Shown: positions 1,025 through 34,284, numbered from the whole stretch's first letter. The stretch is DNA of 62,083 nt, filler included, from Asterionella formosa (GCA_002256025.1; 13 parts of 13 records of this genome joined end to end with filler, not necessarily neighbours in it), one strand, 5' to 3'. Notes: generated by a model from the letters alone, not told the origin. A program made the numbers and translations.

Positions 1025-1910
1025 TACTAGCTTGCAGTAGCTCTCTACTGAAGGCTAATTTTTTAAATGGAATCCTGATTGAGCAAAAAATGTGCTTTTT
1101 TGTCAGTACAACTGTGATACATATGTGGCTTCAACTGTTATTTAGAATTGCACCAATCAACATCACTCTAATGTAAGACATATACCATTTCTGTGAGTAC
1201 AAGTATGGTACATAATAATTATTGAAATAACTGCTATAATTTTTGCGTGCACATTCATTATCACATTTTTCTTGCTCATTTGCAAATTCTTGGTTGCATC
1301 CTCTTCCCTTTGTGCTCACCATCATGATGCCGCATGTCCCTCTTCATCCTCATGGCATTCCTTTAGAGGAATTCAATCAGCAGATGATGATGGACAAGGG
1401 TACATGCTGGGCATACATATCTGACAGTTTGGCCTCTTTTTGCTGGTGTGTTGAACACAAGCCAGGATGGCTTACATCATATGCCCAGAACAAAGTGATT
1501 CTTCCCAAAATGGAGGCAGCATGCATAGGTACAAGGGAAGAAAAAATCGTGTGAGAAACAGATTTGTTGAATTGATTCAGCATGCTGCAGGGGAAGCCAT
1601 CATGATGCTCTCTGCAATCACTCCAGCAGGGTATATGGTATATCTCCAGAACCTTTGCCATTCTTGGTCACAAGATCGGCTGTCCAAGAGCTGCTATGGG
1701 AATAAGTGATCAGATCAATTCAACTAAATCAAGCTACATAATGGCACAGGCTTCATAGTTGATTTTGAGCAGGAAGTGAGCAACTTTTTGCATGGTTTTT
1801 ATCGGATTATTGCAGTAGAGAATCATTATGGGTTAGGAGAGATTTGTGAGGATAATTACCCCATGAACAATCAACTATATCACCTCATTTGTAATTGGTT
1901 CATTGAGTTA

Positions 1911-2149
1911 AAAGTTAATTAAATTTTAATACTAGTATGTTAAAGCTATCCAATAATTGTACTCGTGCCCAGTTAAATGGAAACAATTAGTACCAGTTGT
2001 ATTCATCCATATGGTACAACAGTACCTGTCTCTTTGTCAGCCTCACCCCCAGAACCCTAGGGACTACTTCATAAAGGAAATACAGGTGGAAATTGCAGGA
2101 ATCGAACCCGTTACCTCATGAGGTGTGCTAACCAATTAAGTCATTCCCC
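1911..2149 (-). mobile_element. tRNA-derived SINE, copy 1
   Basis: The minus strand starts GGGGAATGACTTAATTGGTTAGC (A box) ... GGTTCGATTCC (B box). It is collinear with 19602-19838 and flanked by a 19-bp TSD with 2 mismatches (taattggttcattgagtta 1892-1910; tacttggttcattgactta 2150-2168). Confidence 0.85.
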
Positions 2150-2413
2150 TACTTGGTTCATTGACTTAGGAACTTTGTGGGAAGGTCCTTTTGTGGTCTA
2201 CCCATGTTACTTGCATGATTCTCTTCCTCTCCCCCTATGTTTTTAAAATCTGAAACGTTTGGTAATAAAACCAAAGCTGCAGTGTTTCCAATGATGCTCT
2301 TATGGACTATGTACCAGTTGATGGACTCCCCAGTATATCAGCAGGCGGTATTTGTCGTAGTCACGTGATCATTTTCATATTCTATCGCCTATTACATACT
2401 GGAGTGATATTAA

Positions 2414-4194: not shown

Positions 4195-4335
4195 AATTAG
4201 CTACCTACTGTACACTACCGGTACGAATTCTCAATTAATTGCCTCCTAACCTTCGTTGCGACTACTCAATTAGCTACCTACTGTACACTACCGGTACGAA
4301 TTCTCAATCAATTGCCTCCTAACCTTCGTTGCGAC
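4195..4335. repeat. Tandem duplication, 73-bp period
   Basis: aattagctacctactgtacactaccggtacgaattctcaat(t/c)aattgcctcctaaccttcgttgcgac at 4195-4262 and 4268-4335. Confidence 0.9.
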
Positions 4336-5392: not shown

Positions 5393-5483
5393 TTTTGTTA
5401 ATGCAGTTGGCCTGCCTTCTTTATGCTCACACCATTTGCCTCATTGATTTCTGTGTTCCTTTAATTCTTGGAATGCAATACAG

Positions 5484-6370
5484 CAACGACATGTAAGCGT
5501 GGAGATGTAACGATAGATCAATTTAATTACGCTTCTGTCACTTCTTTGTCGAGTGCAGGATGGTTCAACGGCAAGTTAGAGGCTGATTGCCCAGCCCTCA
5601 CCCAGTTTCTTGGACGATTCGGTAATGCTGGTCCATTCCCCTACAAGACTTACACTATTCCTCCTGCCACAACACAAGTGAAGGTGGAGTTCGACTTCTA
5701 CCAAATAGACAGCTGGGATGGTGGCACTGATAGCCTAAGGGTACTTCTCAATTCTCTTTCGATTGATTTGGGTTCGTTCCAGACTTCTGACATCTCTACG
5801 CCTGGACACGTGCCAGGAACCCCAGTTAACCGACAATACCCTACCGACGTTTCCGTTGTGTTAACCACCCCTAAGAGGACTACTTCAATCGCTTGCTTCT
5901 CTTATGGAAATGAAATCATTCATCACATCACGATTACCTTGCCTAGCAAATATTTCAGCACGGGAAAGCTAACTTTGGAATTGCAGCCCTGGTTATCTAG
6001 TGATTATTATTATGAGGCCGGCGGCTTTGACAACATCAAAATCACCATACTTGATTGTGACATGGACCGTGATGGTTACCCTGATTATGCAAACGATAAA
6101 TGTCTTGGAACTCCCAGCGGTGCAAAGGTTGATTGGCAAGGCTGCAGCGGAAAGCAAAATGTCGTGAAGAATTGTGGCAGTTTATGTTCGGATGCCAGCA
6201 CGTGCTCAAAGAGCAAATATGTAACATGTGTGAACAAATATGCCTCCTCCCAGCTTCAATCTGGACTTTTAACATCTACGCAGAAAGACACAATGGTCTC
6301 ACAATTGATCTTAGGTTGTGGTTGCCCACACACCAGAAATCTTCGGTCTGGTCCTGACAGTGATGAATAG
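5484..6370 (+). CDS. Terminal exon of a probable secreted Cys-rich protein with a thrombospondin type-3-like Ca-binding repeat
   Basis: About 295 open codons after a polypyrimidine tract and a TACAG acceptor at 5483. Contains DMDRDGYPDYANDKCLGTPSGAKVDWQGC (TSP3-like), FDFYQIDSWDG, a Cys-rich C-terminus and RNLR near the end. Confidence 0.65.
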
Positions 6371-7337
6371 ATAAGCCAGAAATGTGAACCTGGAGAATCG
6401 GCAGTAATAATGCGTGCTTGAATGAAGGAATGGTACATGGTTGATATTCAAACCTTCCAGCAGATACAGGTGATCAACGCGAAGGAATACATAGAATTTA
6501 GTGAGAACAGAAAAAACCCATCTAACCAACAAAAACAATACATATCATTAATAAAGAAAAACAAATACGTATTTAGGAAGAATGGTTTTATTGCAAAGTA
6601 GTGCAAGCCTCCAATGTTGCCAATGGCTATTATATCTTCCGCCCCAAGTGACAGTAGGGAAGCAGTAGCCTTCATTGAGAACTTTCAAGTAATGGGAGGT
6701 ACTATCAACTTATTTTTGGATTCATAGACCACGCTAAGTATTGTTGTGCACCCGACCATCATTTGGCCCATTACATGTTCCTCCAAACGAGCACAAAACG
6801 TTCGTTATGCCTCCTACTTAGACTGTTAGCTTTTGTGGGTACAGTTGTATGACAAAAAATAGCTACAGAATGTAGGCATGAGCATGGCTGCTGATCCTGA
6901 AGTGGTGAGCACATTCATCCTGAAAAAGTGCACGGGAGACCTTGAATAGTGACAAAATGCAGCAATAAGTATTTTCAAGAAACGTGATCGAATCAAGCAC
7001 CTTCTGTAGATCGAAACCCTCATACAAAAAATGAAACCATCAAAGCCTTAAATATTAATAATAAATGTAAGTTGTCTAATTTGTATAAATATAAATGCAC
7101 ATCGCCTCCAACAACGGTTTAGTACTGGCAGCAGGAAGTCACATGTTCAATCACTTTAAGTTTCGTAAATTTCGTCTCTCACTTGGATTGCTACTCCATG
7201 AAGAAATTCTGCACCCAGGACGACGCTTCCGTCTCTGAAAAGCACCCTCAATCCCAGTGTATTTTACTTTGTAGGGATGAGATCAGGCATTAGGAAGAGT
7301 TGACCACTTTATATCGGCTCATCAACCAGTCATGATG

Positions 7338-7652
7338 TTATGCCTCCGAACTGGTGGGCAATGGTGCATTTGGAGGTCCACCATCATGTAGTGGTTTCCG
7401 AGGATGAACCAGATCTTTCACTTCAAAATAGCGATTACTGCCGGAATATTCATCTACAAACCATGCAAATTCTTTACCTTGGTCGTCCCGGAAAACACTT
7501 CGAGCTGCCACGATCGGCGGACCGTCCTCAATCACTTCAGCAGGTTCTGAAATTAAAATGGTGGGATGTGGATGTGGGGGAATGGAGGGAGAAAATGTTT
7601 CCGTTGAATGAAGCATGGAAACTAAAGCAAGACCAAAACGCTGGATGTTCAT
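7338..7652 (-). CDS. Small hypothetical protein or pseudogene with a signal-peptide-like N-terminus
   Basis: MNIQRFGLALVSMLHSTETFSPS resembles a diatom bipartite presequence and the composition is protein-like, but the ORF is short with no recognisable domain. Confidence 0.3.
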   Translation of the reverse strand: MNIQRFGLALVSMLHSTETFSPSIPPHPHPTILISEPAEVIEDGPPIVAARSVFRDDQGKEFAWFVDEYSGSNRYFEVKDLVHPRKPLHDGGPPNAPLPTSSEA

Positions 7653-10600
7653 GATGAGATTTTACGTGTTGGGTTAAATGATTTCTATGATGGGAGAAAA
7701 ATGAGAAGCAAGGAGTCGTATCATGTACATCATACATGTATAGGAATGACAAGATTTTCCAATGAGAACTGATTTGACATGACATACCGGTAACCAAAGA
7801 AAATAGGTACCGGAGTACCAGGTACAATCATACCGGTAGATGTTGTTGATTCGCTTACATATGATAGTGGTGATTGAGGAGTTCGTATGCCGGTTAATCA
7901 TGATGTGTGCGACATGACTACCCCTGGTACCAGGTATCTGGTACCTGGTTCCTGGTAATATATAATACTACGGGGTATATCATAGCAATTCCCGCTCCAG
8001 CTATAGTCTTGCCATTCGGGTACTTCTAAGTAATTTTTAGTCTCTAAGTAATTTCTTAAGTAATTTTTATTTAGGGGCAATATGGGGCACATCGAATTTT
8101 TCGGCAATAAAATTGCCGATTTTAGCATGACAACCAGAATAACGGTAATATGCATAGAGATGGTACAACAAGCGTAAAACACACGAGAATGATTGTAACA
8201 TGCAACATCAATGAAAATTGAACATGATGTTTGGAGCAACCAAAGTATGAAATGCGATGTAATAAGTAGCATCAAATGAGAAATAGAAAAAATTGTTTTG
8301 AGTTAGAAATGAAATAAAAAATAAGAGTTCCAATGGAGACGTATGCATTGTGAATCATTGTAGTAGACTACTTACACAGGCAGCATTGACTTTCCATCAG
8401 CACCATACAATCGAAGACCGAAAGAAGAAGAAAAAAAGCTCAACCCAATGTAGACCTGCATCGTTTTTAGCGTCAAAGGTCTGGTTGCTGCAACCATGCG
8501 CATCGCTGTAGTATCCTGACACCACCCAGTAGCAGTATTTCCGCCACAGTCATTCCTCTCCGCCCACCAAACAGGCAACCCTGATCATTCCATTCTGAGC
8601 AAGCGTGATCGCCACGCTGCTCCAGCACTTTTGACTCTCTCTAGCTGAGTATTCATGTAGCTTCTGATACGAACTCGCAGTAGAAATGTAGAAAAGCGCG
8701 TTAGTACAAGAAATGCATTGCTTGGCGGCAATATTGACATCATTGTCAATGACTATACAAATCAACAACGGCACAATACCACATCTTCAATGAGTAGTCA
8801 TTGATAAATGCATTGGTTCTCATGTAGATATGTACAATCGAAACAAAACTACAGTGCGTAACGACAAACAACGATGGAAGCGATCAAAACAAACCACGGA
8901 AGCAATCAAATCGGAAAGTCGATAAATTCGATAAATACGATCTACAATCCACATTCAGTATTTCACTGTTGTACTCACCGATCCGCTTCAACTAGCATAA
9001 CAAGCAGCAGAAGATGGGATAAAAGAAAGACGAACGTTGCCTATTGCAAGCCCGAATAGAGCAAAGGCAGGCAAGATAGAGTGAGAACTATATTTGTGAG
9101 GACGAAATCGGGCATATGGTACTTAAAATCAATGAATATGTGAACGATATAATTCAACATTTCAGGTCTCGTAGAAATAATACTGAGTCTACAGAGGTAA
9201 TATTATAACGTGTTCAAAGTAAGCGTTAAAGCATGCATGGTTGTTTTTAGTACCACGTACGTATGTAGACTAGATGACTGCCGGTACCGGTAGAATATCC
9301 GTTAAGCATCATTACATACCGGTACATGACCGGAGCAAAAACTTGCCACCAACATCAGATGTATCGATATCATCGTGCGTCCGACGAAATATGGACGATG
9401 CGACTACATGAATACCTCGAGAAGACAAGCAATCCAACAATCAACCGCATCCGTTAGGCAAAGAATCGCTACTGGCGTCATCGCGGAACTGATTTCGCTT
9501 CAAACCGGTCATGATGGACNNNNNNNNNNNNNNNNNNNNNNNNNNNNNNNNNNNNNNNNNNNNTTAATTAATTAANNNNNNNNNNNNNNNNNNNNNNNNN
9601 NNNNNNNNNNNNNNNNNNNGATAATCAAATTTCGGGGAGCATTGCCACTGAATTATGATTTCGCAGCACAAACTGAAATATTTAACCAACAAATGGAAGT
9701 TGTTATGAATCACATGACAACTAGCTACCGATGTAACAATTCGGCTTCTGCCACTTGGGAAAGTCACTGCAGAAAGCAGCATTTTCAAACTGGAAAAGAT
9801 GGCCAAATAAGAATAAATCAAGGTCACTGAATGTTTTCGCGAGGAAGAAATACATTGACACATATTTTTTCATAGAAAGTCACAATAACACTATTCAAAC
9901 ATAAGGCGGTTAATCCTAGTAGTGCCATGTCTAAAAGAAAACGTTTTTTATTGACAAGGACAAGCTAGTCTACTGGACCTAGAAGTATACAATGTCCAGA
10001 TTGGATAGTTGTTTTGGAAAAGTAGTTTTGCAGTATCAGCAGATAGAACAAATAAATGGCTGTTATGTTCATTACTGGGACCAGAGGTTTCAATAGACTC
10101 GGACTTTCAGGTCAGGAGTCAAGGTATCAAGTTTGCAAAATTTCTTTGCAAACAAGCAGTGCGAGAAAGATCTTGATTGGTCATTCCAGGTCATTACAGC
10201 AACTAGTAGGAATAAGTGCCACTGTCAACATCTTCCATATAAATGTAAGGGTTTTGTTGACAATGAATGCCACGATGTGACTGAGAAAATTGTACTGGAG
10301 TACCGGTACTTGGACATATGTAGCCCTACCGGTAGACGCGACTGCTCGTCGGGCTCCGGATAAATTCTTAGCATCGTCGCCGCAATTATTTTCATGCAGG
10401 GGAGCGCGAGGGCGAGTACCGGTACCGGTACCGGGAACAGAATTCTTTTTTTGCTACCGGTATCATCATTCTTGTCGTTGGCGAGGAAAAAATTGATTGG
10501 CCCATATGAATCATGCATTCAGACTGATATCCCGAGATGGCTATAGCTAATTAAATATCAACACGCACTTCAAAAAGCCAGAAGTAAATGATGGGTTGTG

Positions 10601-10784
10601 TGATGTTTTGTTCTTGTACTGGAGTACTACCGGAATGTATACCAGTAGTTAATATTTTTTATCTATCGGCATATGCGAATCTGCTACCGGTATTCGTTCC
10701 TTTTCGAAATTGCAGAAGCAAAGGACGACAAGACAATAGTCACCTGATCGCTATAAAGATCAAATCACGAGGGAGCCTTGCAAC

Positions 10785-12491
10785 ATGAAGCGAACAGTAG
10801 CCCTCGTTGGTGCTCTGCTCTTCTCTGCCAACCATGCTGGCGCGTTTACTATTCCAAGCTCTGCGTTGTCCCGATCTCTGATTGCCAAATCCATAATGCC
10901 GGGGCCGACGACAAGCGCTAGCTGGAACTCGAAAGGTTTGAAAATGAGCGACGTTGTCGCAGGGGAGGATCCTTTGTTCGAACCCCTTGGCGTGGGCATC
11001 AAGCGAGATATTTCCACGAGACTTCCGCACTTCAAGTCAGACATCACCGACGGATTCAATCTTCAGTGCCTGGCCGCAATTATGTTTCTATTCTTTGCTT
11101 GTTTAGCACCTGCCGTTGGCTTTGGAGGACTTTTTTCTATTGCCACAAACGGCGCTATAGGAACTATGGAGATGGTCAGTTCAACTGCTGCTTGCGGAGT
11201 CATCTACGCATTGACTGCTGCACAGCCATTAACGATTATCGGATCAACTGGGCCGGTTCTTGCCTTTGTGGCATGCTTAGTGCAACTTGCCAGTATCATG
11301 AGCCTCCCCTTCCTTCCTCTCTACACTTGGACTGGACTCTGGACTGCTGCTATCCTTTTTATCTCCTCTATTACATCGGCGTCTAACCTGGTCAAGTACT
11401 TGACTCGATTCACTGATGAGATCTTCTCAGTCCTTATCAGTGCTATCTTCATTGTTGAGGCCGTCTCCGATGTCAGCGCAACGTTTTCTAGTCCATCCTC
11501 TAACTTTGCAAAAGCCTTGTTGACCTTAACTTTGACAACTGTCACGTATGCTACGTCCACCTTTTTGAAGGGACTCCGCAACACTGCGTACCTATCCAAA
11601 TCTGCACGAGACACCATTTCCAACTTTGCTCCTACTATTGGTGTCGTGGTTGCATCATTGATTGCCAAGTGGGCCAGGGTTACTCATGGACCTGGAATTG
11701 CCGGACTTCCTTCTCTTTCCCTCCCTGCCACCTTTGCCTCGACTTCTGGACGCCCATGGTTGGTACCTCTCATGGAGTTGCCAGTATGGGCTCGTTGGGC
11801 TTCCATTATTCCTGCCTTGATGGCCACTGTGTTGCTGTTTTTGGATCAAAACATTACTGTTCGTGTTGTCAACAACCCTCGCTACAAGATGACAAAAGGA
11901 CGTCGATTGGGTAATGTCTTGGATGGAATGCATGCTGATATGCTCGTCATATCCATTTTGACCGCCCTTCAATCACTTATTGGCTTTCCTTGGCTCGTTG
12001 CTGCTACAGTTCGTAGTATCTCTCATGTTCGGGCACTTTCTAAATTCGATGAGAAGACTGGCGAAATATCCGGATCTATCGAACAGCGGGTGACTGGCAC
12101 AGCAATTCATGCTCTTATCGGATGCTGCGTCTTGTTACCCAAACCTCGAGCACTCCTCACACAAGTTCCTCTTCCTGTTCTAATGGGATTGTTCATGTAC
12201 TTGGGGGTTTCCGCTCTACCAGGAAACGAAATGTGGGAAAGAATTACGGGCTTCTTCAAGGACAGTGCGGTTGCTCCCAAACAGCCTTGGACGGATAAAG
12301 TCCCTACTAAAATTGTCAACCTATTTACCATGATTCAAGTTGCCTGCCTTGGGGCCATGTTCTACGTCAAGAGCAGTAGCTTCGGTGTCCTATTTCCCGT
12401 GGTTATTGCTATGCTCGCTCCTCTACGCTTCGCTCTTGAGAAAACAGGCCTAGTCAAGAAGGAGTACATTGATATTCTCGACGACGAATAA
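10785..12491 (+). CDS. SLC4: SLC4-family bicarbonate/anion transporter, probably plastid-targeted
   Basis: 568 aa multi-TM ORF with SLC4/BOR motifs FLFFACLAPAVGFG, QPLTIIGSTGP, TRFTDEIF, LLFLDQNIT, AATVRSISH, EQRVTG and GLFMYLG. The N-terminus has a signal peptide, an AGA|F cleavage motif and a Ser-rich transit peptide. Confidence 0.93.
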   Translation: MKRTVALVGALLFSANHAGAFTIPSSALSRSLIAKSIMPGPTTSASWNSKGLKMSDVVAGEDPLFEPLGVGIKRDISTRLPHFKSDITDGFNLQCLAAIMFLFFACLAPAVGFGGLFSIATNGAIGTMEMVSSTAACGVIYALTAAQPLTIIGSTGPVLAFVACLVQLASIMSLPFLPLYTWTGLWTAAILFISSITSASNLVKYLTRFTDEIFSVLISAIFIVEAVSDVSATFSSPSSNFAKALLTLTLTTVTYATSTFLKGLRNTAYLSKSARDTISNFAPTIGVVVASLIAKWARVTHGPGIAGLPSLSLPATFASTSGRPWLVPLMELPVWARWASIIPALMATVLLFLDQNITVRVVNNPRYKMTKGRRLGNVLDGMHADMLVISILTALQSLIGFPWLVAATVRSISHVRALSKFDEKTGEISGSIEQRVTGTAIHALIGCCVLLPKPRALLTQVPLPVLMGLFMYLGVSALPGNEMWERITGFFKDSAVAPKQPWTDKVPTKIVNLFTMIQVACLGAMFYVKSSSFGVLFPVVIAMLAPLRFALEKTGLVKKEYIDILDDE

Positions 12492-12654
12492 TAACACTTG
12501 AACTATGCAATTCGAGATTCATTGTTGAAATCATGGCTTATCCGTGCCTGCATAAGCAATATAATATGCCCCCGTAATATGAGTAGATTGATATTTGGGA
12601 AAAGCAATTAGGGATAATGCCACATGTCACGATCTTAAGACCTCAACCCATTCC

Positions 12655-14226
12655 TTAGCTGCCTTTGCTCTTAGCCTTACTTGCGCCTATAGCAACAATA
12701 TCAATCCCCAAACGCTTCAAGTTTCTGATCGTTTTTCGACGACACTTCTTGAAAAATTTCTTCTCCTGCACTCGCCGCTTTTCTCCCTGAATCACTTGGC
12801 TTGCGCGGAGGGTTTCTATTGAAGGCTCTTGCTGAATATTCTTTAGCTTTGTGAAAACATCAACGGGACCACGCCCAGGACCTTTGGGCAGTTGGGTAAG
12901 AATATCAATCATTTCTTCTTCGTCATAGTCTTCTTCATCTCGCTCATCAAGGAATTCAACTCGTCGTTGCGAAGGCAGAGAAATATATTCTAGCAAGTTG
13001 GATCCTGCCGGTGGCGTGTAACGAAATGGGTCATCTTGTACCCATGATCGTATCAAGGAGTACATCGAAGCATCTTCTTGATGTGCATCAAAGTTAATCC
13101 TTCGATTGAGAATATGAAAAATTGCGGAAGCGTCCTTAGGCATGGCCTTTCTAATTTGTTCCTTTGTGACTTTGAAAAGAGTAGTATCATAAAGAGCACA
13201 TTTGTTTCTACATTCGGATGTTGCGGCCACATCAGGTGCATGCCGCAAAGTGGGTAAAATTGCGTTTGAAAGCGGGGGCATGTCTGGCACATTTTCGTGT
13301 TGTGGATTTTTCTTGCTGTAATAGTAAGCTTCACGGTTTTCTTGTTTATTCCTACATTGATGATTCGTAGCAGACGTGGCACCAGCAGTCATAATGGCGA
13401 GCCTCTCCTTTCTGCTGGGTAACAATGCGGCTTTACGAGCAGCTTCCTTGATTGCCTCGTGCTTGGCTCTTGTTTCGTCACCAATTGGAGGCCAAGTTTG
13501 AGACGCATTTCTTGTTGACCGCCCATCTGGTCCAAAACTTTGAACCCGATATTGCAAATTGTTGATCCCTTTTCTATTTTTTGAGTGGAATTTCACGTTC
13601 GTCATATTATAGGTCGATGGATTCTTCGGCACATTGGGGCCACTATGGGCCGATGTCGATGTGGGATAGAGTGATGGACCATGTTGTTGGTAGTGGTGGT
13701 GGTGGTGGTAACAGTGGTGCTGATGTTGATGCTGCACTTGTCCATATTGGGGTGGAGACTGCATGAAGCTGCCACCATACGGAGCATTCACTGCTTGGAA
13801 ATTGGGTCCTCCTGCGACCATCATTTGTCGCGATGCGAAGGGATACATGGGCATAGCTGGCTGAGGAAAATTCATTTGCTGATGATTAGGATGAGCGAGG
13901 GGCATGCCATGATTTGTAGCCCCAAATGGCCGAAGTCCCGATACAGTTCCATTGATGTTGTGTTGATACATGTTCATATTGAGTTGTGAATGAGGAAAAG
14001 GAGGTCTTTCCTGTCCTACATTCATGAATTGATTGGAATGGTGTAAGTTTGTAGCAGAACACGGATGTCTCCGACCTGGCGAGTTTGCGGATTCGTCTGT
14101 GTCTGCCGTTGCTGATGGAATGTCGTTGTCATTGTGTGCTGGAGCGAGCTGGGCAGAGCGAGGATCAGTACCAGTACAGCTGGCACCTCCGTCCGTTTCA
14201 TTCTTGTCGAAGCCATTCGAGTTCAT
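12655..14226 (-). CDS. LIN37-like (MuvB/DREAM) protein with a long low-complexity N-terminus
   Basis: 523 aa ORF. RRINFDAHQEDASMYSLIRSWVQDDP resembles the LIN37 core (LYxxxRxW). The N-terminal half is His/Gln/Pro-rich and the C-terminus is basic. Confidence 0.6.
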   Translation of the reverse strand: MNSNGFDKNETDGGASCTGTDPRSAQLAPAHNDNDIPSATADTDESANSPGRRHPCSATNLHHSNQFMNVGQERPPFPHSQLNMNMYQHNINGTVSGLRPFGATNHGMPLAHPNHQQMNFPQPAMPMYPFASRQMMVAGGPNFQAVNAPYGGSFMQSPPQYGQVQHQHQHHCYHHHHHYQQHGPSLYPTSTSAHSGPNVPKNPSTYNMTNVKFHSKNRKGINNLQYRVQSFGPDGRSTRNASQTWPPIGDETRAKHEAIKEAARKAALLPSRKERLAIMTAGATSATNHQCRNKQENREAYYYSKKNPQHENVPDMPPLSNAILPTLRHAPDVAATSECRNKCALYDTTLFKVTKEQIRKAMPKDASAIFHILNRRINFDAHQEDASMYSLIRSWVQDDPFRYTPPAGSNLLEYISLPSQRRVEFLDERDEEDYDEEEMIDILTQLPKGPGRGPVDVFTKLKNIQQEPSIETLRASQVIQGEKRRVQEKKFFKKCRRKTIRNLKRLGIDIVAIGASKAKSKGS

Positions 14227-15276
14227 TGCTCATCGACTTTGCATTTCCTCCTTCTGGTAGAGGATGTGATGTATTAATTATGTTGCACTTGCTGTCACAG
14301 GTCATGCTTTTTGCANNNNNNNNNNNNNNNNNNNNNNNNNNNNNNNNNNNNNNNNNNNNTTAATTAATTAANNNNNNNNNNNNNNNNNNNNNNNNNNNNN
14401 NNNNNNNNNNNNNNNCTTGCAGGATGTTGGCATGCTGTGTTGATTTGTCGTGACCACGTGAACTCTCGAGGGCCTGCGATCCTGTTACCTCAACATAGAT
14501 CCTACACTCCTGTGAGGTTCACAATCGTTGTGTTGTGGAAGGGAAATCCACAGTTGGGAGTGTCAGGAAAAACCGAAAGAAAGATATACTATAGCGTTGG
14601 GGATAGGGTCAATGTCAAACTCGCCGTGCTCGAAACAGCAAGGAGTCTTCTGCTTGATATTCATCCGTGTTTGAAAAATATTGATACCGGGATACCGGTA
14701 CCAGGTAGTACGTCCTGCTTGCCGCCCATGTCATCATCTCGCGGTATCAGGTGTACCTGGTACCCTGCTACCAGATGCTTTTTTTTTCTTCTCTGAATTT
14801 TAAGGCCCTTATTTTAGTTACTATCTAATTAATAGCCACAACTGCTTTGCCGGGATGCTGCAGCAGCTGGCATGCTGACGATGCAGCGCCTTGTTTGTGG
14901 TTGCTTCAGCACTGTTTACCTAGCTAACATAGCTAGGAGGAGTAAAAAATACTCCGGTACGTAACGACCAGTAGCCTCGTCAACCAGCCACAATGAAATC
15001 ATATGAAATATAGGATAAGATAGGAGTACTCCTCCTATACTCTGTACTTCTTCAAAATAGAGTATAAACATTCCTCTACATGTAGCTACAGTGTAGGAGT
15101 ACCTACCTGCTACCTGGTAGCATTACTCGCAGTACGAGGTACCTACCGATATGTTGTGTGGTACCCTGGTACCTGGTACCTCGTGAGTACCAGGTAGCTA
15201 ACAATCAGGTACCGGTAGGCTCACAAATTCTGCATGCAGGCAAGGGAGAGGCAAATCAGTCACAAATTCTGCCACC

Positions 15277-16662
15277 ATGATTTCGACGAAGAACTGCCAG
15301 AACAGCCGCCGCAAGCTTGCTGTGGCAGCCTTCTTGGCGGCACTATCACCGTCTCATGCCTTTGTAGTTGTTTCACCCAGAGAGGTGGCAGCGTCGTGGA
15401 GGCTCCATTCCATGACTGAAAACGAAGCAGCAGCGCGCGAAGATCTTCCTGATTACGGCAAAACAAGCGTTGACATTGACCAGATATCCCTTGAAAAGAA
15501 GGAGACTTGGCGGCGCAAGGACCTCTTCGGAACGACTCTTCTAGATCAAACAATGGAAGGACTTGAGACAGATGAAGACTATCAATTGACAACTGAACGC
15601 CTCAAGACCATGGGCGCAGAGAAAATGTCCAAGGAGGAACGAACTCAGCGCCGCAGGGCACTAGACTCCCTAGGTGTCCCGGGCTTTACTACCTTTCTGG
15701 CACAAAACTTGCCAACTGGTGAAAATTTGCGACGCAAGACACCAGAAGTGCTACAAGTCAACATTGGACTATACTGCAATCAAGCCTGCGGTCACTGTCA
15801 TGTAGAGTCTAGTCCATTGCGCACGGAAATGATGTCTGCGGAGGCTGCAGCTCAATGCTTGCAGCTATTAAAAAACACTCCTTCGATCACAACTTTCGAC
15901 ATTACGGGGGGAGCGCCAGAGCTCAATAACAACTTTCGCTTTCTAGTCAAAATGGCTAGAGAGCTACGACCTGATATTGACATTATTGATCGCTGCAACT
16001 TGACTGTCTTGCAAGAACCAGGACAAGAAGATCTTATTGACTTTCTCAAGGAACACTCCGTACACATTGTTGCCTCTATGCCATGTTACTCGGCAGAAAA
16101 TGTGGACCAACAGCGCGGTAACGGTGTCTTTGATAGATCCATTTCTGCCCTACTGGCCTTGAATGATGCTGGTTACGGGACTACGGAGACATTGAAACTT
16201 GACTTGGTTTACAATCCTCTTGGAGCATTTTTACCTCCGCCTCAAGACAAACTAGAAGCCAAGTATCATGAAGTCTTGGAACAAAATTTTGGGATCTTGT
16301 TCAATCAATTGTTTACCATGACGAATATGCCAGTCAAGCGATTTGCTGATTTCTTGCACCGACGAGGCGAACTCAAGGATTACATGGATTTGCTAGTGAG
16401 AAATTTTAACAAGGATGCAACGAAAAGTCTCATGTGTCTAAACACAGTTAGTGTTAGTCACAACGGAAAGATTTTCGATTGTGATTTCAACCAGCAACTT
16501 GGATTTGGTGTTGGTGAAAAAGATAAGATCCATGATGGTGGTGTATCCATCTTTGATATTGAATCTTTAACGGATCTTCAGAAATATGGTATTCGTTTCG
16601 ACAACCATTGCTTTGGATGCACTGCTGGTATGGGATCTAGTTGCCAGGGTACCACGGCATGA
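15277..16662 (+). CDS. arsS: ArsS-like radical SAM / Cys-rich domain (DUF3641) enzyme with a predicted plastid presequence
   Basis: LQVNIGLYCNQACGHCHVESSP (CxxxCxxC), DITGGAPELN, DRCNLT, LVYNPLGAFLPP, DCDFNQQL and C-terminal HCFGCTAGMGSSCQG. N-terminal LAVAAFLAALSPSHA|F. Confidence 0.85.
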   Translation: MISTKNCQNSRRKLAVAAFLAALSPSHAFVVVSPREVAASWRLHSMTENEAAAREDLPDYGKTSVDIDQISLEKKETWRRKDLFGTTLLDQTMEGLETDEDYQLTTERLKTMGAEKMSKEERTQRRRALDSLGVPGFTTFLAQNLPTGENLRRKTPEVLQVNIGLYCNQACGHCHVESSPLRTEMMSAEAAAQCLQLLKNTPSITTFDITGGAPELNNNFRFLVKMARELRPDIDIIDRCNLTVLQEPGQEDLIDFLKEHSVHIVASMPCYSAENVDQQRGNGVFDRSISALLALNDAGYGTTETLKLDLVYNPLGAFLPPPQDKLEAKYHEVLEQNFGILFNQLFTMTNMPVKRFADFLHRRGELKDYMDLLVRNFNKDATKSLMCLNTVSVSHNGKIFDCDFNQQLGFGVGEKDKIHDGGVSIFDIESLTDLQKYGIRFDNHCFGCTAGMGSSCQGTTA

Positions 16663-16879
16663 ATACAGTTAGTTCACCGGGGTAAAACCTGAGACTTATC
16701 TGCGTGAGCAGACAATTTTATAACGAAACAGAATAACTCGTGTTGAAACAGCCGCATTGTAAATCGTGAAAATGAATGTCGTTGACCGCATCTTGCAAAG
16801 TTCCATTGATAATGATTTCAATATTTAACAAGAAAATAACCCATCATTTACCATGCTTGACTGTGGTCAGGTCATCTCT

Positions 16880-17700
16880 AGACATGAAACTTCACAAGGT
16901 TGGGTGAACTTTTAAATGCATAAGCAGTAGCCTGTCCACTTTTTTCTGTCGTAACATTCTCAACTCGCAACCTGTGCCCAACAGCCTCGACTAGTATGGT
17001 CCTTCCACCATATTCTCGAAGAATCACTACAAGGATACCCAACTCACCAACACAATCCCTCTTGTATTCCACTTCTCCACTCAAGCAAATTACCGTTCTG
17101 TGGATGGAGGAAGAGTACTTTATATCAAATGAACTTGTATATGACTTCCTCTTATCAACATGACCAAACATGTGCAATGAAATTGCTCTTCCCCTTTCTC
17201 CTTCAGTCACAAGTCTTGATATGCCCAGAATATATATTTAACCCCCCCCTCCAGCCAGAAATGTCTGCATGACATTTTGGGGTAAACTTGACCTCCTTTC
17301 CAATCTTGGTCTCAATCTGGGGCTGCATCACTGCTTTCTTATTCAAGAAGTCAGCACAAATTGACATGATTCATGTGTCTCAAATTTCACTCAATATTGA
17401 TGATTCCATACGCATCTTTCTGTTCAGTTCAAGTGTAGTAAGATACATTTTGCTACCAGCAACCATCCCTCAATCCCACAATCATTGGATTAACTTGTTC
17501 TTGTTGCCTCCTTGTTGACTTCCTTCACTTTTCTTTCTTGGCTAGCAGTTTCAATTTCATGCTGAAAACAAAGATTCTGAAGCTCATGTTCTTTTCTTTT
17601 TCTTTTTGATGCAAGGGCATCAGACAATTGGGAACGCTCCCAAGAATGATTTTCCATCTGAGGTGGCCATTGTGGACCACAATGCTGCTGCTATCAAATG
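16880..17700 (-). pseudogene. Degenerate IS630/Tc1-like DDE transposase (C-terminal part)
   Basis: The minus strand around 17220-17360 reads DFLNKKAVMQ...KFTPKCHADISG, then after frameshifts GV-Y-W, resembling the PKxHxELxxxxIEYxW motif. Many stops and frameshifts. Confidence 0.5.
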
Positions 17701-18184
17701 TCCAGATGTATTATACCATATTGTTGGTGCCAAAACGATACAACAGGCACTACTATGCTTTGTCAATTTTGTGACACAAACAGAGAAGAAGACCTTCTTT
17801 CATAGTGTTTTGCAGCACTGTATGCCCTAGGGGTTGGTGATGATTCTCAAGTGTGCAATGAATGCCAATTGATCAAGCAATTGCTCATTTTGTATATAAT
17901 GAACATTACATAATTTGCATGTCTAAGTAATACATGTTTATAGATAGTCTATGTAACCTATGTATTTATTGATAGAATATTCAAATGTTAAAAATCTATC
18001 CTCATGCTAGGACTTATAAATTGGCTACGAAATATACTTGTAGCATGATTCCAGACATGCATTCACCACCACAAGAATTGAAGCAAGTGAATAAATCAAG
18101 CATGGCCTAAATTGCGCACTTTGTTCCATCATCATTACTCCTCGTTGCTACCTTCATCATACTCTTGTAAACTGGTACCAGGTA

Positions 18185-19106: not shown

Positions 19107-19601
19107 NNNNNNNNNNNNNNNNNNNNNNNNNNNNNNNNNNNNNNNNNNNNTTAATTAATTAANNNNNNNNNNNNNNNNNNNNNNNNNNNNNNNNNNNNNN
19201 NNNNNNATGATACCTAGAAACAAAAGCAACGAAGCTAGTAAGAAATTCTTGTCCCACTGTCCCTAATTTTGTACAGACAAAGCAACTCACCCGATGACTA
19301 TTACAATTGTACATGGTCTTCAATGAAGGCAAATGAGCAGGACTGTTGCTTTGTGTGCTTCCCTAGTTCTTTTATGTAGATGAATCCCTAACCATCTTTT
19401 GCGAAGGTTTCATTATCAACCAGCCCTTCATTTTCATCATCTTGCATGATGTATGCTACATAAAAATGCACTCATATCCTACCATTCTGCACACCCTTCA
19501 TGGTCATCATTATGCACCTGAACGATGATAAGAAACCTTGTGAGGAATGAATCAGAAACAATAAACACAGGAAGTGTACAAATATGTTACCTACGCTAGA
19601 A

Positions 19602-19838
19602 GGGGAATGGCTTAGTGGTTAGCACACCCACTGTGGTGGCGGGTTCGATTCCTGCATTCTCCATCTGTCTTTTTCATGTAGTCCCTAGGGTTCCGGGGGG
19701 TGCGGCTGACAAAAAGACAGGTCCTGTTTTACCTTACGGACGAATAAAACCGGTACTAATTGTGCCCATCTATTTGGTGGGCCCGAGTGCAATTATTGGA
19801 TAGCTTTAATGTACTATAATATTTAATTGACATTTATG
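19602..19838 (+). mobile_element. tRNA-derived SINE, copy 2
   Basis: Head GGGGAATGGCTTAGTGGTTAGC...GCGGGTTCGATTCCTGCATTCTCCA has A and B boxes plus acceptor and T stems. AT-rich tail. 13-bp TSD accta(c/t)gctagaa at 19589-19601 and 19839-19851. Confidence 0.87.
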
Positions 19839-21487
19839 ACCTATGCTAGAAACTTCAGAATGAACATCTGCCAATCTTTCCAGTTCAAATGATAAAGTCA
19901 TATACAATCCTTCACTGGCTAATCATGCATACTAGGCCCTTCCGCCACCATACTACTGCTATACTGCTAGCAGTTCATACTCTCAATGTAGACAAGACTT
20001 ACTTCATATAAATGGTGCATATATACTTCAACACCAAACATGTTGATGCATGCAATCAAAGTCAAATCACAATCACAAAACTGGTTCAAAACTACTAGTA
20101 TAATGGATATGAAATTCTTGGATGAATGTAGCAAACAAAGCAATTTGGCATATACACCTAGTAGTAATGAGGATCTCTGACCCTCAGTAGTATAGCAAAC
20201 AATGAAAAAACATACATGGCTGAGATTTCCACATTTCGTAAATCCCACTTACATGAAAGCTAGGATAGCTAATCTTACCCTGCAGCTCATAATCATTACT
20301 TCTTTCACCTTTTAACTTTCAAATTGCACAAGAACTTGAGGACAAGATTTGCATGGGTGCACATAATTGTGTTAAAAAATCTGATGTGTTACACTCAAGA
20401 TGAATATTGCGGGTTATACAGAATATGGAAAGGAACCCTAGGTGTCAGTGTTAAAATATATTTCACTATGTTAAGAGAGAAAATAATTCATTTTGATTAT
20501 TAAATAATTTAATCTTTTCGAAACAGAACAGTTTTGTGCCCTGCTCCTTTAAAAAGAGAAAATAATGTATTCTAATTTTTAGATAATTTAATCTTTTTGA
20601 ATATNNNNNNNNNNNNNNNNNNNNNNNNNNNNNNNNNNNNNNNNNNNNNNNNNNNNNNNNNNNNNNNNNNNNNNNNNNNNNNNNNNNNNNNNNNNNNNNN
20701 NNNNNNNNNNNNNNNNNNNNNNNNNNNNNNNNNNNNNNNNNNNNNNNNNNNNNNNNNNNNNNNNNNNNNNNNNNNNNNNNNNNNNNNNNNNNNNNNNNNN
20801 NNNNNNNNNNNNNNNNNNNNNNNNNNNNNNNNNNNNNNNNNNNNNNNNNNNNNNNNNNNNNNNNNNNNNNNNNNNNNNNNNNNNNNNNNNNNNNNNNNNN
20901 NNNNNNNNNNNNNNNNNNNNNNNNNNNNNNNNNNNNNNNNNNNNNNNNNNNNNNNNNNNNNNNNNNNNNNNNNNNNNNNNNNNNNNNNNNNNNNNNNNNN
21001 NNNNNNNNNNNNNNNNNNNNNNNNNNNNNNNNNNNNNNNNNNNNNNNNNNNNNNNNNNNNNNNNNNNNNNNNNNNNNNNNNNNCTTCGAGCATTTGCGGC
21101 AGCTATTGTAATCGATTTCGGGTTTGTAATGGAGTGGCGGTGAGTCTAGACTGGTCAACCCGGCTAACAATTACTTCACTATAAAGCCAGACAATTTTTC
21201 TTGTGCCGAGCATGATTCCCCGGTTCCCTCCCTCTGACAGATACCGTTGTAAATAAAGGGAAAACTACTGAATGTGACTGTGCCTTACTAAAAACCTACG
21301 CAATGCGTGAGTTTACGCCAAGTACAAAGATATAGAAGAAAGTAATCATGAAAATGCCTCCTACATACTAACTGGCGGCAAATCGAGTATCAATAGAATA
21401 GATTTTTCAGGCGTAGAATATTGAGTCGATGCATGCTCCTGTTCATGGATCCATTGAAACAACTCTTAAAAAAACATTTTAGTCTCT

Positions 21488-22630
21488 TCAATTGGGTTCC
21501 CAAAGGGTATTTGGCATGAATCGAGGCCTACACGTATGGCAGTAGCAAAACGACCGATCGCACCCCACAAAGGCCTTTGGGTCCTGCATCGTCACAAGAG
21601 CATTGATATTCGTCCAAACCTCTGCCACATCGGCATGTATTTCGTTCAATAAGACATCACGTTGGTCCTGGGTTGCTCCCATATCCATATCTAAATATTG
21701 ACCTGGGCCATCTTCACTGGTGAGAAATAAAAGGCGTAACATGCGCAAGTCGAGGCCCTTCAATTTATCCACGTTCTTTTCTCTCAACAACAGAGCATAG
21801 ATTTTCAACTGATAAAAGGCTTGAGTGACAATTTTCTCATTCATAGTTGGACTGTATTTGAGATTCGGAGCTTTACCCGTCTTGTAATCCACAATGCGTA
21901 GTGCTGTGCGACCGTCGTCTGGGCTCTTGTACATGTCGATGCGATCGATAATTCCCCTCACATGAAAACAAGGAGCGTCTGGTGGAGTGGGTTTCGTTGT
22001 CGCCGTCACTCCAAGACTGGAGTCTAAGGCCAAGTCACTTCGGACCCAAATTTCCCGCTGCACTGGGTTGGGCCGACAAATCTGCGTGGGATCCTCAAGT
22101 TGATAATAATTCTCCAGGAGTGCCAGCCCCGACTTTCCCCACGTTCGCTCTCCCTCGGTATCCCATTTTCCTTCCTGCGAACCAAATAAGATGCGATAGG
22201 TATCATTGTTTCGGACTTTGCTCCAGCTGACGCGAAATAGGTTTTGTAGCGTTTCCAAGCTGCGCTCTTCTGGGGCCAAGTCAAATAGTTTTTCTAGCGC
22301 CTCGTGACACATACTACCTTTGGCCAATACCAGGCTTGTCGGTTGACGGATTCCCCAAAGATATTGAAATAGATAGCTCTGCGGGCAGTTCTTGAACTCC
22401 GAAATCGCCGATGGCGAAAGAGATTTTGGGGCTGGAATGGTTCCATTGGTCATTGCGCTTGGATGTAAAAGTTCGGGTGTGACATCACGATCTTGTTCCA
22501 TGGAGGTCAGGAGGGTCGATAACGCTCGAGTTGATTTGTGACAATAGGATAACAGAGCGCCTGAACGTCGCAACACATGTGCCATCATCATTAGAAAGTA
22601 AAGGGCGGTCGCTGAATTGCGCATGAACAA
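21488..22630 (-). CDS. PD-(D/E)XK RecB/AddB/Cas4-like exonuclease with a probable Fe-S staple, likely organelle-targeted
   Basis: SLSPSAISEFKNCP, GSMCHEALE, RGIIDRID, IVDYKTGK, QLKIYAL and C-terminal CDRSFCYCHTC. Has an N-terminal targeting-like extension. Confidence 0.85.
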   Translation of the reverse strand: MFMRNSATALYFLMMMAHVLRRSGALLSYCHKSTRALSTLLTSMEQDRDVTPELLHPSAMTNGTIPAPKSLSPSAISEFKNCPQSYLFQYLWGIRQPTSLVLAKGSMCHEALEKLFDLAPEERSLETLQNLFRVSWSKVRNNDTYRILFGSQEGKWDTEGERTWGKSGLALLENYYQLEDPTQICRPNPVQREIWVRSDLALDSSLGVTATTKPTPPDAPCFHVRGIIDRIDMYKSPDDGRTALRIVDYKTGKAPNLKYSPTMNEKIVTQAFYQLKIYALLLREKNVDKLKGLDLRMLRLLFLTSEDGPGQYLDMDMGATQDQRDVLLNEIHADVAEVWTNINALVTMQDPKAFVGCDRSFCYCHTCRPRFMPNTLWEPN

Positions 22631-23435
22631 GGGCTGCGCCGAAAGGAAGAGCCTACTGCAGCGAGTGTGTCGCTACCAAAGGTCAGCCAGAGTACGTAAG
22701 GAGGAGCGACAGTAGTCTAGGTCTTGCTTCATGCGTATTAATTAAATAATGTACAAACACATTCTTTATTTGATGCTAGTTCTTTGGCTTTTCGCTCAGC
22801 CTGCCAACCATCATCATACATAGCTATCGGTATCACATTATTTACACCCGTATTGGATTTTAGCGTTGTTGTTAGACTCGTACGACCGGTGTTCGTTTCA
22901 GTTTTGGCGCGCCATTTGGGTGGAAACCTACCGGTATTCGTGACAGACAGTGTCGTCTCTTTCACTTTAGTTCAAGGTATACTACATAGACTACCGTGGT
23001 CCACTGGTCCCAGGTACGGTAGACTAGTCTACCTAGTCTACCTGGACTTGAAATTATACTAGAGTCTACATAATGGCTAGTACTTCATTGGCTAGTTTAC
23101 GTCTGGTAGAACCAGAGTGAGAGTGATGACTGACCGCTCCATAGATTTCAGCTCATCGTTTTCTCACATACCAGTACATCAAATGCTACAAAGTTCAACC
23201 ATTGATGGCATCTGCATAATTCTGGCATAGGCGTCTTATACAATCATTGCAACGACATCAATCATGTTCCTAGCTTCAAGCCTCATTAGCCTTGATTGTA
23301 TTATACACATTCACGATATGGCCTGCGAAAGTTTCGTTTCTGTTTGATTCATAGAACAACATTGGCACAGGCAGCATAATTTCAAGGGAGCGCAATAATC
23401 CTTCTTAAATATTCCGCAGTTTTAGTTTCATTTCC

Positions 23436-28675: not shown

Positions 28676-28775
28676 NNNNNNNNNNNNNNNNNNNNNNNNN
28701 NNNNNNNNNNNNNNNNNNNTTAATTAATTAANNNNNNNNNNNNNNNNNNNNNNNNNNNNNNNNNNNNNNNNNNNN

Positions 28776-31700
28776 TGCGACTTCTGACCATGGTAATAAT
28801 AATGCATTCCTGGGTGGAAGTTCACCAAAACCAGTACCAGGTAATTTTGTACGTTGACATGCTTCACATACTCTTACAATATGTTCCACTCTTGCTTTTA
28901 ATATAGGGTGATAAAAATGTGTAGCAATTGTAGCATTTAATCTTGTCATACCCACATGAGCTAACATCTGATGATACCAATTAATAATAGGATCCAATAA
29001 TGATGTAGGAATAGCAATACGCCAAGTATCTCCTGGATTCTTCACAAAACATATTAAAAATATATCATGAAAATTGATAGAAGGAAATTTTAATGGATGT
29101 GTTTGTTGATTGAGAATCAATTGTATCAATTGTATATCCAGCAATTTTCTATCATGTTTTAAATTATAATCCAGAGGATATTGAATATTGTCTTTGAAGA
29201 TAGGATGATTAAGGAAACATGTAAGCAGAGGTTCATCATCTAATTCAATTGAAAAGGTAGAAGCGGAAGTTGATGTTGGAGATTTCGGTCCAATATCAAT
29301 ATCATCCTCCACCAAAGACTCAAGCCTCGGGAGGCGAGAGATGGAATCTGCAATAGCATTGTCAGTTCCTTTCACATAGTGAAAAGTAGGATGGTATTCT
29401 TCAATGTAAAGTCTCCATCGTAGAACACGTTGAGTATGTAATGTATTATAAATAAGATTTCGATGATCAGTGTGAACATGTAAGGATCTGTTCCATAGTT
29501 TTATATAAACCAAATGGAGTTGAAATAACACACAAGTTTTGACTCTCCACATCCAATGCAAAAGTATAGTATTACATGGAAACATCCAATTTGGTGAAAA
29601 ATACATATCCAGCACGTTTAGTGAGAATAGTTTGTATTCGAGGCAAAGGATATATATTGCGATTGATGACTTTATTAAGTTCACGAAAATCTGATACCCA
29701 TCGGACACTTCCGTCCTTTTTGGAATAATAAAAGTGGGAGATGCCCATTTAGAAGCACCACATTTTTGTAGGACTCCAATATCACATAATCGTTGTAATT
29801 CCGTTTTGAAAACTTCTAAATGAATATGAGCGACCGGATATGCTCGTTGATGACGAGGGACAGCATTTGATAATAATTCCAAATGTACCTGTTTATGAGG
29901 ATAGACTTTTAATTTGCCATCAAATAATGTTTGATATTTAACCAATATAGATCGTAAACATGATCGTTGTATTGTTGTCAAATGTATCTGTTTATCCACC
30001 ACTGTATCAATATTTAAGTAATTATATTCAGCAGCTTTAATTTCCAGCGCATATGAAGATTCCACAATCATAGGTGCATCGAAATATAATAATACATCTC
30101 GTAAACGTTCTCTATCATCAAAGAATGTGAGAGGATGCATAGGAACAATCATATCCATACAGGACATGGTGTTATTTACGAAATCAATGGTTGACGTAGG
30201 AAATCACGTCCTAAAATAACATCAAATGTGCATTGACCATTAAAGACTTGACACTTTTGTTGTAAAATATGAGCGGATCGATTAAACTCTGGTAAAATCA
30301 GGTCATATAGCATGACACTGGCATGAGATGAATAAGTACCAGATATGGTATGTATTAATTGGGACGTCTTGTCAGACAAAGAAATACCTTGAGGCATAAC
30401 CCGTTCATGTATTAAGGATAATGATCCTCCACTATCGAATAATACTCGTAGTTGTTTATGTATCGGTATATTATCCACCAATCTTGGCGCTAAAAGGGAC
30501 ATCGGAATCAAATCAATTGATGTTAATATATCCTTAGAAGTAAAACAGGAAACCGGAATTGGCCCTGATATGTATGTGGAACATCATGTCCATCAATACA
30601 GTTATATATATCCCGCGTAACATTAACAGCGGTATCCATAGTGTATTCAACCTGTAAATAAACAATATTATTCAGGTGATGACTAACGTGAGATATACTC
30701 AACGAGTCATTATAAATAGCATCGCTATTATTGCACATACCTCTGTGATGGCGATCAGCAATCTGCTGTTGTGTAGTAGGGACAAAAGTCACTATCTGAC
30801 CAGCAGGAGGGTTCGTGACGACTGAAATTTCCTGGGCAGATGTATTCTCGGTAGCTAGGATCGGCACGTGGCACAGTACCCTAACCGGATGGACGAGTAT
30901 TATGACCCCATGTATTTAACATACGAGCATGTGGAACAGGCACAGGGTTAGCAGTGTCAGTATGATAGCTTTCCATAGGATTGCTGTGTGCACCGCCTCC
31001 ACGACCACCAAAATGTCCTCCTCTACCGAAACTGGAACGGCCACATCCATTATGATGACCAGCCATGCGACCTGCTCGACCACCTTGAGTGCGAAGATTC
31101 TGGAAACAATTGCCCCAAGTATGTACACCTTCAGGATGTACCGGGCAAGGACCACGATAATCATGGTACGTACGACTGGCTTGTAGAGCTTGATGACGAA
31201 CAGTTGCCTGACAATCCCATGCGCGTCCAGCTGCATTGACAATAGCACGCGCCCTTCCACGAGCGCTTGGAGTAAAATTATCCTTGTAGAATTGACGACT
31301 GACACGCTCGTTTTCTTGACGCATCACACGATTGCCTTCAGGAATGCGAAGACGGTTCTGTGTGTTTGTTTGAAAACTGTTCTTGGGAAGATGCTTGTTT
31401 CGATCCTTAAACGATTGTTGACTCTCGAAGTAAGCGAGAACCGAGCGAATCGATTGGTCTGAAGTCTTTGCATGATTTAATTCAAACTCTTGTTGCCACT
31501 CATTGGGCATAGAACGGATAATGATAATCCGCATATCTTCTTTTGACAATCCAACTTGATCTTCTGGATGAGGCATTAGTTGAAGTGGCCTGTTTAAAGT
31601 TTTAATACGAGCTCCGAAATCCATTACCAACATAGAAAAGGGTTTAGATAAATAACATAGCATCCATTGTCGTTGATGTTGAAAACTCTCGTTTGGTAAA

Positions 31701-33452: not shown

Positions 33453-33552
33453 NNNNNNNNNNNNNNNNNNNNNNNNNNNNNNNNNNNNNNNNNNNNTTAA
33501 TTAATTAANNNNNNNNNNNNNNNNNNNNNNNNNNNNNNNNNNNNNNNNNNNN

Positions 33553-34073
33553 ACGGAGCCAAGGCCATTGCAGAGGCTCTCAACGTCAATACTGTCTTGA
33601 CTAAACTTGATCTCTGGCGTAATTCAATTGGTGATGACGGAGCCAAGGCCATTGCAGAGGCTCTCCAGGTCAATACTGTCTTGACTAAACTTTCTCTCGG
33701 ATGGAATTCAATTCGTAATGACGGAGCTAAAGCCATTGCAAAGGCTCTCAAGGACAATACTGTCTTGACTACACTTTCTTTCAGTAATAATTCAATTGAT
33801 GTTGACGGAGCCAAGGCCATTGCAGAGGCTCTCAAGGTCAATTATGTCTTGACTACACTTGATCTCCGGTATAATTCAATTGATGATAGCTTACTTAATG
33901 AAATTCAAAGAACAGTTGAGATAAGCAAGCACGTTCCCAAACCGGATAACATTGATGATTATGTTTTTAATTGTTTCAGGGATCTAGCAGCAGCCCGGAT
34001 CTGGGGGGAAACAGCCCATATCGGGGTGGATAATGTAGCTATATGTGCTATTTTACCTGGTACCGATTCATGA
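33553..34073 (+). CDS. RI-like/NLRC3-type leucine-rich-repeat protein (5' end in a gap)
   Basis: Four 84-bp (28-aa) repeats of consensus DGAKAIAEALKVNTVLTxLxLxxNSI. Confidence 0.8.
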
Positions 34074-34284
34074 GGATCGACAAAATTTTCGGCATTTTCC
34101 ATCTATCATGCAGGAGCAATAATGAGTTGCATCGTAGAATTCTACGACAAGTGATAGAGAAACTATTTTTGCAGAATTTAATCACGATAACGACAACGAC
34201 GACGAGACACGAACAAGAACCAAACAAAGAAGTCGCACGAATAAACCAAAGACAACCCTCATTTCATTCAAGACGACATTGACA

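Follow-up and report, generated by a model that had tools for sequence, protein, structure and literature searches.

The closest described counterparts of the element considered here are the short interspersed nuclear elements (SINEs) derived from transfer RNAs (tRNAs), which form the SINE2/tRNA class of animals, plants and fungi. Elements of this class carry a tRNA-like head with the internal A and B boxes of an RNA polymerase III (Pol III) promoter, followed by an unrelated body; they are non-coding, are flanked by duplications of variable length and occur in hundreds or more dispersed copies. We describe an element of the same organization from the diatom Asterionella formosa (GCA_002256025.1), with two copies of about 240 base pairs (bp) in a stretch of 62,083 nucleotides (nt), filler included, that joins 13 parts of 13 records of this genome end to end and is referred to below as the window. 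It departs from the class in its head of 62 nt, in a mini-hairpin that takes the place of the anticodon arm, and in a tail made up of a short T/A stretch rather than of poly(A) or a microsatellite. On the evidence presented here, we regard it as highly probable that the two copies belong to a family of tRNA-derived SINEs residing in a diatom nuclear genome.

A 3' end of this kind has parallels in other lineages: plant SINEs such as Au SINE combine a tRNA-related head with a 3' T stretch instead of poly(A). The present element resembles them in head and T-rich 3' end, a likeness of organization that implies no sequence relatedness. Within diatoms, SINEs have been reported in Phaeodactylum tricornutum by automated repeat annotation (PMC5859163) and in Cyclotella cryptica v2.0, where their roles are called poorly understood (PMC7466962). 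The relevant passages of these two reports also describe SINEs as missing from most unicellular species, or as thought absent from unicellular eukaryotes. None of these passages states a sequence, a head type, flanking repeats or a copy number, and the diatom SINEs that they mention are likened to ours by host group and class label alone; a passage in a further source (PMC12803021) gives only the GC content of the SINE class. As treated in these passages, diatom SINEs are only a class label from automated annotation, and in the main texts of the papers searched on SINEs in diatoms, stramenopiles or Bacillariophyta we found no anatomical description of a diatom SINE. Beyond the diatoms, AfuSINE2 of Aspergillus fumigatus exemplifies tRNA-related SINEs of a microbial eukaryote, with flanking direct repeats of 4-14 bp (PMC5063351); its host belongs to a different kingdom, and from the passage concerned the two are likened by description only.

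Two collinear copies with separate flanking duplications

Alignment showed that copy A (237 bp, plus strand) and copy B (239 bp, minus strand) are collinear over their whole lengths. Two further members, designated L001 and L002, were retrieved from a metagenome collection and are described below. The parts of the two copies in the window, with their target-site duplications (TSDs), are as follows.

19589..19601, plus strand: left TSD of copy A, 13 nt, matching 19839-19851 at 12 of 13 bases
19602..19663, plus strand: tRNA-like head of copy A, 62 nt, with a sub-threshold match to the Rfam tRNA model, a cloverleaf fold and exact boxes
19664..19789, plus strand: copy A body, which has no relation to tRNA and aligns collinearly with copy B, L001 and L002
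19790..19832, plus strand: conserved 3' block of copy A, presumed recognition region for a reverse transcriptase
19833..19838, plus strand: short variable T/A tail of copy A, differing in length and sequence among copies A and B and L001
19839..19851, plus strand: right TSD of copy A, pairing with 19589-19601
2150..2168, minus strand: upstream TSD of copy B, 19 nt, matching 1892-1910 at 17 of 19 bases
1911..2149, minus strand: copy B; B box exact (2098-2108), A box degenerate, no T4 run except in the 3' tail
1892..1910, minus strand: downstream TSD of copy B, pairing with 2150-2168

When copy A (19602-19838) was used to interrogate the window by BLASTN, copy B was recovered at 80% identity over 245 columns (E 7e-56; 83.8% with gap columns removed), and all other matches had E-values of 0.49 or more. 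A search of the window with a profile built from three copies likewise revealed no copy beyond A and B. The flanks of the two copies do not align, the likeness ending exactly where the flanking repeats start, and the 395 and 462 bases that border copy A occur only once within the window; the similarity between A and B is therefore confined to the element itself. Neither long terminal repeats (LTRs) nor, with a seed of 6 and a minimum length of 8, terminal inverted repeats were found, and the ends bear no direct repeat other than the flanking duplication. No open reading frame longer than 66 amino acids was seen inside a copy; a protein search with a 66-residue open frame inside L001 returned one weak match, which is uninformative on distribution.

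The duplications themselves were evaluated against 5000 random site pairs placed 230-245 bp apart in the window and scored by the same rule, with the same slack. The score of copy A was reached by 9 of these pairs, and a score of 11 or more by 2, the TSD of copy B (which includes an exact 12-mer, 2153-2164 and 1895-1906) scoring 12; the flanking repeats in the window are therefore not attributable to chance. All three full-length copies examined possess a flanking repeat of their own, of 13 nt (A), 19 nt (B) and about 12-13 nt with one indel (L001), and in each the repeat has decayed by roughly 8-10%. The initial annotation of this DNA, made from the sequence alone, had posited two collinear elements of about 240 bp at these places, each with an AT-rich tail and a different TSD (13 and 19 bp). 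Alignment and BLASTN, a reading of both tails, and the matching and random-pair comparison, respectively, bear out these three statements.

A reduced tRNA-like head with putative Pol III promoter boxes

The boxes were sought with TRGCNNAGTGG and GGTTCGANNCC, which we take to be the consensus sequences of the A and B box. The B box occurs twice in the window (0.25 occurrences expected), both times inside a copy (19642-19652 in copy A, 2098-2108 in copy B), and is exact in all four sequences, L001 and L002 included. The A box of copy A (19608-19618) is the only exact match to its consensus in the window; that of L001 has one mismatch and that of copy B, with more than one, is degenerate.

Aligned end to end with the Rfam tRNA model, the head of copy A scored 26.2 bits (E 0.0018), the gathering score of the model being 29, and it placed 5 bases in the anticodon arm region where the model expects 13. 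Folding predicted a cloverleaf comprising a 7-bp acceptor stem, a 3-bp D stem and a 5-bp T stem with a 7-nt loop, in which the anticodon arm is replaced by a mini-hairpin (a stem of 4-5 bp and a loop of 4-6 nt; 4 bp and 6 nt in copy A) and no variable loop is present. Copy A and L001 both formed this cloverleaf, as did three copies folded as a consensus; copy B folded alone no longer formed it. A G3:U70 wobble pair, the alanine identity element of tRNAs, is retained in all three heads and offers no more than a lead to the parent tRNA. Fold energies were not unusual relative to shuffled sequences (z about -1.3), and the argument for a tRNA-like head therefore rests on the pattern rather than on stability. 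These results agree with the earlier description of a tRNA-like head with Pol III boxes, the B box being exact in both copies and the A box in copy A, and with its remark that the anticodon and variable region had collapsed to leave about 62 nt in total, a mini-hairpin standing in that place.

The head is tRNA-like and is not a tRNA. A genuine tRNA gene was considered and ruled out by the reduced anticodon arm, by the score below the Rfam gathering score and by the program ARAGORN, which made no call. At gathering thresholds Rfam reported nothing in the window, and sub-threshold pieces resembling Plastid-ycf2 (on the opposite strand), mascRNA, U4atac and tmRNA, all with E-values of about 1 or worse, were dismissed as chance matches.

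Dispersal of the family among contigs and genomic copies

To extend the inventory beyond the window, contigs from four public sequencing runs were aligned to positions 19200-20240 at 80% likeness or better. Three of the runs are DNA (X1, X4 and X13; X4 is a lake DNA run) and one is RNA (X15, a lake metatranscriptome). The 2.4-kb stretch around copy A occurs in contigs of freshwater, lake and algal metagenome runs, and the four runs gave the following values.

X1, DNA: 6812 contigs; flank depth 868-1021; depth inside 19620-19829, 468,000-1,410,000
X4, DNA: 964 contigs; flank depth 20-26; depth inside 19620-19829, 4,900-17,900
X13, DNA: 67 contigs; flanks mostly without cover; depth inside up to about 200
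X15, RNA: 43 contigs; flanks mostly without cover; depth inside 340-5,100

Summed depth inside the element exceeds that of the unique flanks by about 190- to 1600-fold, a quantity that is no copy number and that we read only as "hundreds or more." The contigs also share conspicuous break points. At least 74 contigs of X1 depart from the reference just before 19601/19602 and at least 87 just behind 19832/19835; for X4 the corresponding counts are at least 71 before 19601/19602 and at least 78 behind 19828-19835. At the 3' end the exit points are 19828, 19832 and 19835. Agreement among the loose ends was only 0.38-0.52 (0.38-0.41 at the 5' end in X1), as is the case for unrelated flanks. Such break points are characteristic of numerous dispersed insertions that share their termini, and the termini that they define agree with the limits given by the flanking repeats. 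The high copy number that had been suggested from two copies in 62 kb is thus matched by a large excess of contig depth and by many shared break points. The same account had held that a lack of further dispersed copies with TSDs would argue against a SINE; many dispersed copies were found, one of which (L001) could be seen to carry a TSD.

The insertion represented by copy A is itself present in two of the runs, since contigs of both X1 and X4 cross its 5' junction without difference and a contig of X4 crosses its 3' junction. Among 15 of the 31 joints, none skipped the whole element as an empty copy A site would, which leaves polymorphism at this site undecided either way. Internal skips between joints were considered as deletion variants and rejected as such, as they may represent divergent bodies.

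An exact 24-mer from the head was found in two stretches of the metagenome collection (L001 and L002), and in none of the prokaryote genome collection or the viral collection. The third full-length copy lies in L001, between base 519 and about base 768, and L002 contains a fragment truncated at both ends (184-348, as delimited by the profile). Copies A and B and L001 are mutually 83-85% identical and about equidistant; the equal distances, together with TSD decay of about 8-10%, fit a single old burst of amplification, which would place the family about 8% away from its source. Copy A has 8 CpG sites; at 6 of these, C>T or G>A changes make up a tenth or more of the contig depth, and the CpG in the B box (19646) was not variable among the positions listed. 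This pattern would be consistent with CpG decay of methylated repeats and with retention of the promoter in the amplifying lineages. Because of the 83-85% identity, the decayed TSDs, the T runs of copy A (see below) and the damaged A box of copy B, we consider the two copies in the window to be old, inactive insertions, probably dead.

Two side observations concern individual members. The mini-hairpin (19622-19639 in copy A, with equivalents in copy B and L001) keeps its stem and has a different loop in every sequence, and contigs break alignment at 19635 to continue with a different loop (at least 36 loose ends in X1 and at least 30 in X4); the loop differences suggest subfamilies distinguished by this feature. 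In L002 the fragment lies between two convergent open frames, 3-236 (plus strand) and 347-808 (minus strand), of which the former passes from an acidic, D/E-rich segment into the SINE head, where it terminates. The fragment may therefore provide a gene's last codons and stop.

Body, 3' block and tail

The body, the part in which several SINE superfamilies (CORE, V, Deu, Ceph, Nin-DC, Meta and others) carry the conserved central domain that defines them, had only chance-level matches in an Rfam scan (E of 1 or more), and contig depth is lower over the body than over head and tail. Two T runs are private to copy A, a T5 at 19670-19674 (position +69 of the element) and a T4 at 19727-19730 (+126); at 19729, about 95% of the contig depth supports G in place of the T of copy A.

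The 3' block contains a stretch of 20 nt that is identical in copies A and B, and X1 depth climbs again to about 1.08 million in the bin 19795-19829. We presume that this block serves as the recognition region for the reverse transcriptase. In all copies it ends in TTAATTGAC, after which a T/A stretch of copy-specific length follows. Copies B and L001 have no run of four or more T except in the 3' tail (element positions 237-240), and the consensus sequences of loose ends beyond 19832 and 19835 start with T runs. From these tail and loose-end T runs we infer that a Pol III terminator in the tail would have ended the source RNA, as would fit Pol III transcription.

Head-plus-tail RNA contig

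Among the joints listed, the deepest X15 contig matching the element (depth about 3036) shows likeness only to the head as far as 19669 and to the tail from 19785. The same joint is present in an X4 DNA contig at single-copy depth (19.7). This head-plus-tail contig is a lead that could represent a short source gene or a domesticated small RNA.

Origin and mode of mobilization

The head with its boxes, the lack of inverted repeats, the variable TSDs and the dispersed copies together support the proposal of the initial annotation that these are members of a tRNA-derived SINE family. In such a family, Pol III would initiate from the boxes in the head and transcribe through the body of about 125 nt, which is unrelated to tRNA, and then through the conserved 3' block of about 45 nt, the transcript stopping at a T run in the short tail. 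An autonomous non-LTR retrotransposon, presumably a partner of the long interspersed nuclear element (LINE) type, would then supply the enzyme that copies this RNA into staggered nicks in the chromosome by target-primed reverse transcription. Reverse transcription at staggered nicks would leave flanking duplications of variable length, here 12-19 bp.

Several observations weigh against this interpretation. With regard to the head, ARAGORN called no tRNA in the window, L001 or L002, and none in the three heads even with its thresholds lowered to 70%; the head of copy A lies below the Rfam gathering score, and no Rfam tRNA match was obtained for L001, nor for copy B at E-values up to 10. The A box starts at 19608 and the B box at 19642, a spacing of 34 nt as compared with the usual value of about 44 nt in tRNA genes, and the promoter function of the boxes is therefore assumed. 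The T5 and T4 runs of copy A would probably stop Pol III early, and the tail of the element is neither poly(A) nor a simple repeat. With regard to the partner, no non-LTR reverse transcriptase or endonuclease was detected by Pfam in 46 of the 63 stop-to-stop frames of at least 110 amino acids in the window. The X15 RNA consists of metatranscriptome contigs in which 96% of the aligned part continues into unlike sequence, as would be expected of copies lying within longer transcripts, or of DNA carry-over, rather than of unit-length transcripts. Finally, actual sequences were seen for four members only (copies A and B, L001 and L002), family size being read from summed depth.

Some of these same points favor the alternative that survives best, namely that the element is the same kind of non-autonomous retroposon, mobilized by a Penelope-like element or another reverse transcriptase, or copied from read-through transcripts of RNA polymerase II (Pol II). 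In its favor are the lack of a LINE in the window frames scanned, a tail that has no poly(A), the extension of almost all X15 contigs with the element (0.96) into unrelated sequence, and the short spacing of the boxes. Against it, all three full copies start at the same base of the tRNA-like head, and many contigs break exactly at 19601/19602, as expected of a Pol III start. The exact B box in four of four sequences further suggests promoter selection in the source copies, and the T run in the tail of two of the three full copies fits Pol III termination. We consider this alternative improbable.

Much less plausible, in our judgement, is the explanation that the copies are not mobile at all and represent dispersed functional tRNA-like Pol III genes, or pieces of segmental duplications. 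Conservation of the head and B box, and the deep RNA contig that matches head and tail, would be natural in a family of Pol III genes. Each copy nevertheless has its own flanking repeat and flanks unrelated to those of the others; with 83-85% identity and loss of CpG, the copies show the decay of neutral sequence, and L002 is truncated at both ends. Least credible is a DNA-level element with a chance tRNA-like segment, such as a miniature inverted-repeat transposable element (MITE) or other cut-and-paste derivative: MITEs are also short, non-coding and dispersed, as is the present element, but they have inverted repeats, of which none was found here under the settings given above, and flanking repeats of fixed length, since a given transposase makes a target duplication of fixed length, in contrast to the 13, 19 and about 12-13 nt observed.

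Implications of a probable diatom SINE family

A tRNA-derived SINE family of this kind leaves the understanding of how SINEs work unchanged, its mechanism being unsurprising; its value would lie in several uses. A delimited family could serve as a curated repeat model for the annotation of diatom genomes, and its loci, scored for presence or absence, as markers of strains and populations in a common freshwater diatom. The family also offers a handle for finding the active non-LTR machinery of diatoms, and the element a compact candidate internal Pol III promoter for small-RNA expression in these organisms. A more specific proposal, which we advance tentatively and consider doubtful as a whole, is that this is the first anatomically defined SINE family of diatoms, lineage-specific, with a minimal head of 62 nt bearing a tetraloop-type mini-hairpin, an oligo-U tail of Pol III terminator type, and some members still expressed. 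If that were true, the oligo-U tail would imply a partner that recognizes the 3' block, either a LINE of the stringent type or a Penelope-like element.

Surroundings of the two copies in the window

Six long, intron-poor frames in the window were matched by Pfam, and both SINE copies lie outside them.

10740-12491, plus strand: bicarbonate transporter
15202-16662, plus strand: radical SAM with DUF3641
21488-22672, minus strand: PD-(D/E)XK nuclease
33501-35738, plus strand: LRR plus protein kinase
41618-42076, minus strand: AFT-type transcription factor domain
45838-46857, minus strand: DUF6824

The closest relative of the bicarbonate transporter frame (Pfam HCO3_cotransp) has 84% identity, and other relatives occur in Seminavis robusta (71%), Thalassiosira profunda and Cyclotella atomus (both 69%). 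These named relatives are all diatom proteins, in support of a diatom host. At 28728-30583, on the minus strand, lies the remnant of an LTR-type retroelement, in which a frame with an integrase zinc-binding H2C2 domain is followed by a frame with a retroviral aspartyl protease; the frames scanned there gave no match to a reverse-transcriptase domain. This remnant is unrelated to the SINE. The window contains pairs of 44-base N runs with 12 bases between them, at intervals of about 4.78 kb, along with two longer N runs; this regularity looks like an artefact of record-making or masking, and none of the runs touches the SINE copies or their TSDs.

A second, low-copy repeat occupies 19235-19409, just upstream of copy A. 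Its depth in X1 is 2- to 11-fold above that of its neighbours, and it is represented by several variant contigs, with no second copy in the window. A joint at 19286/19783 in one contig connects this repeat, in opposite orientation, with part of the SINE.

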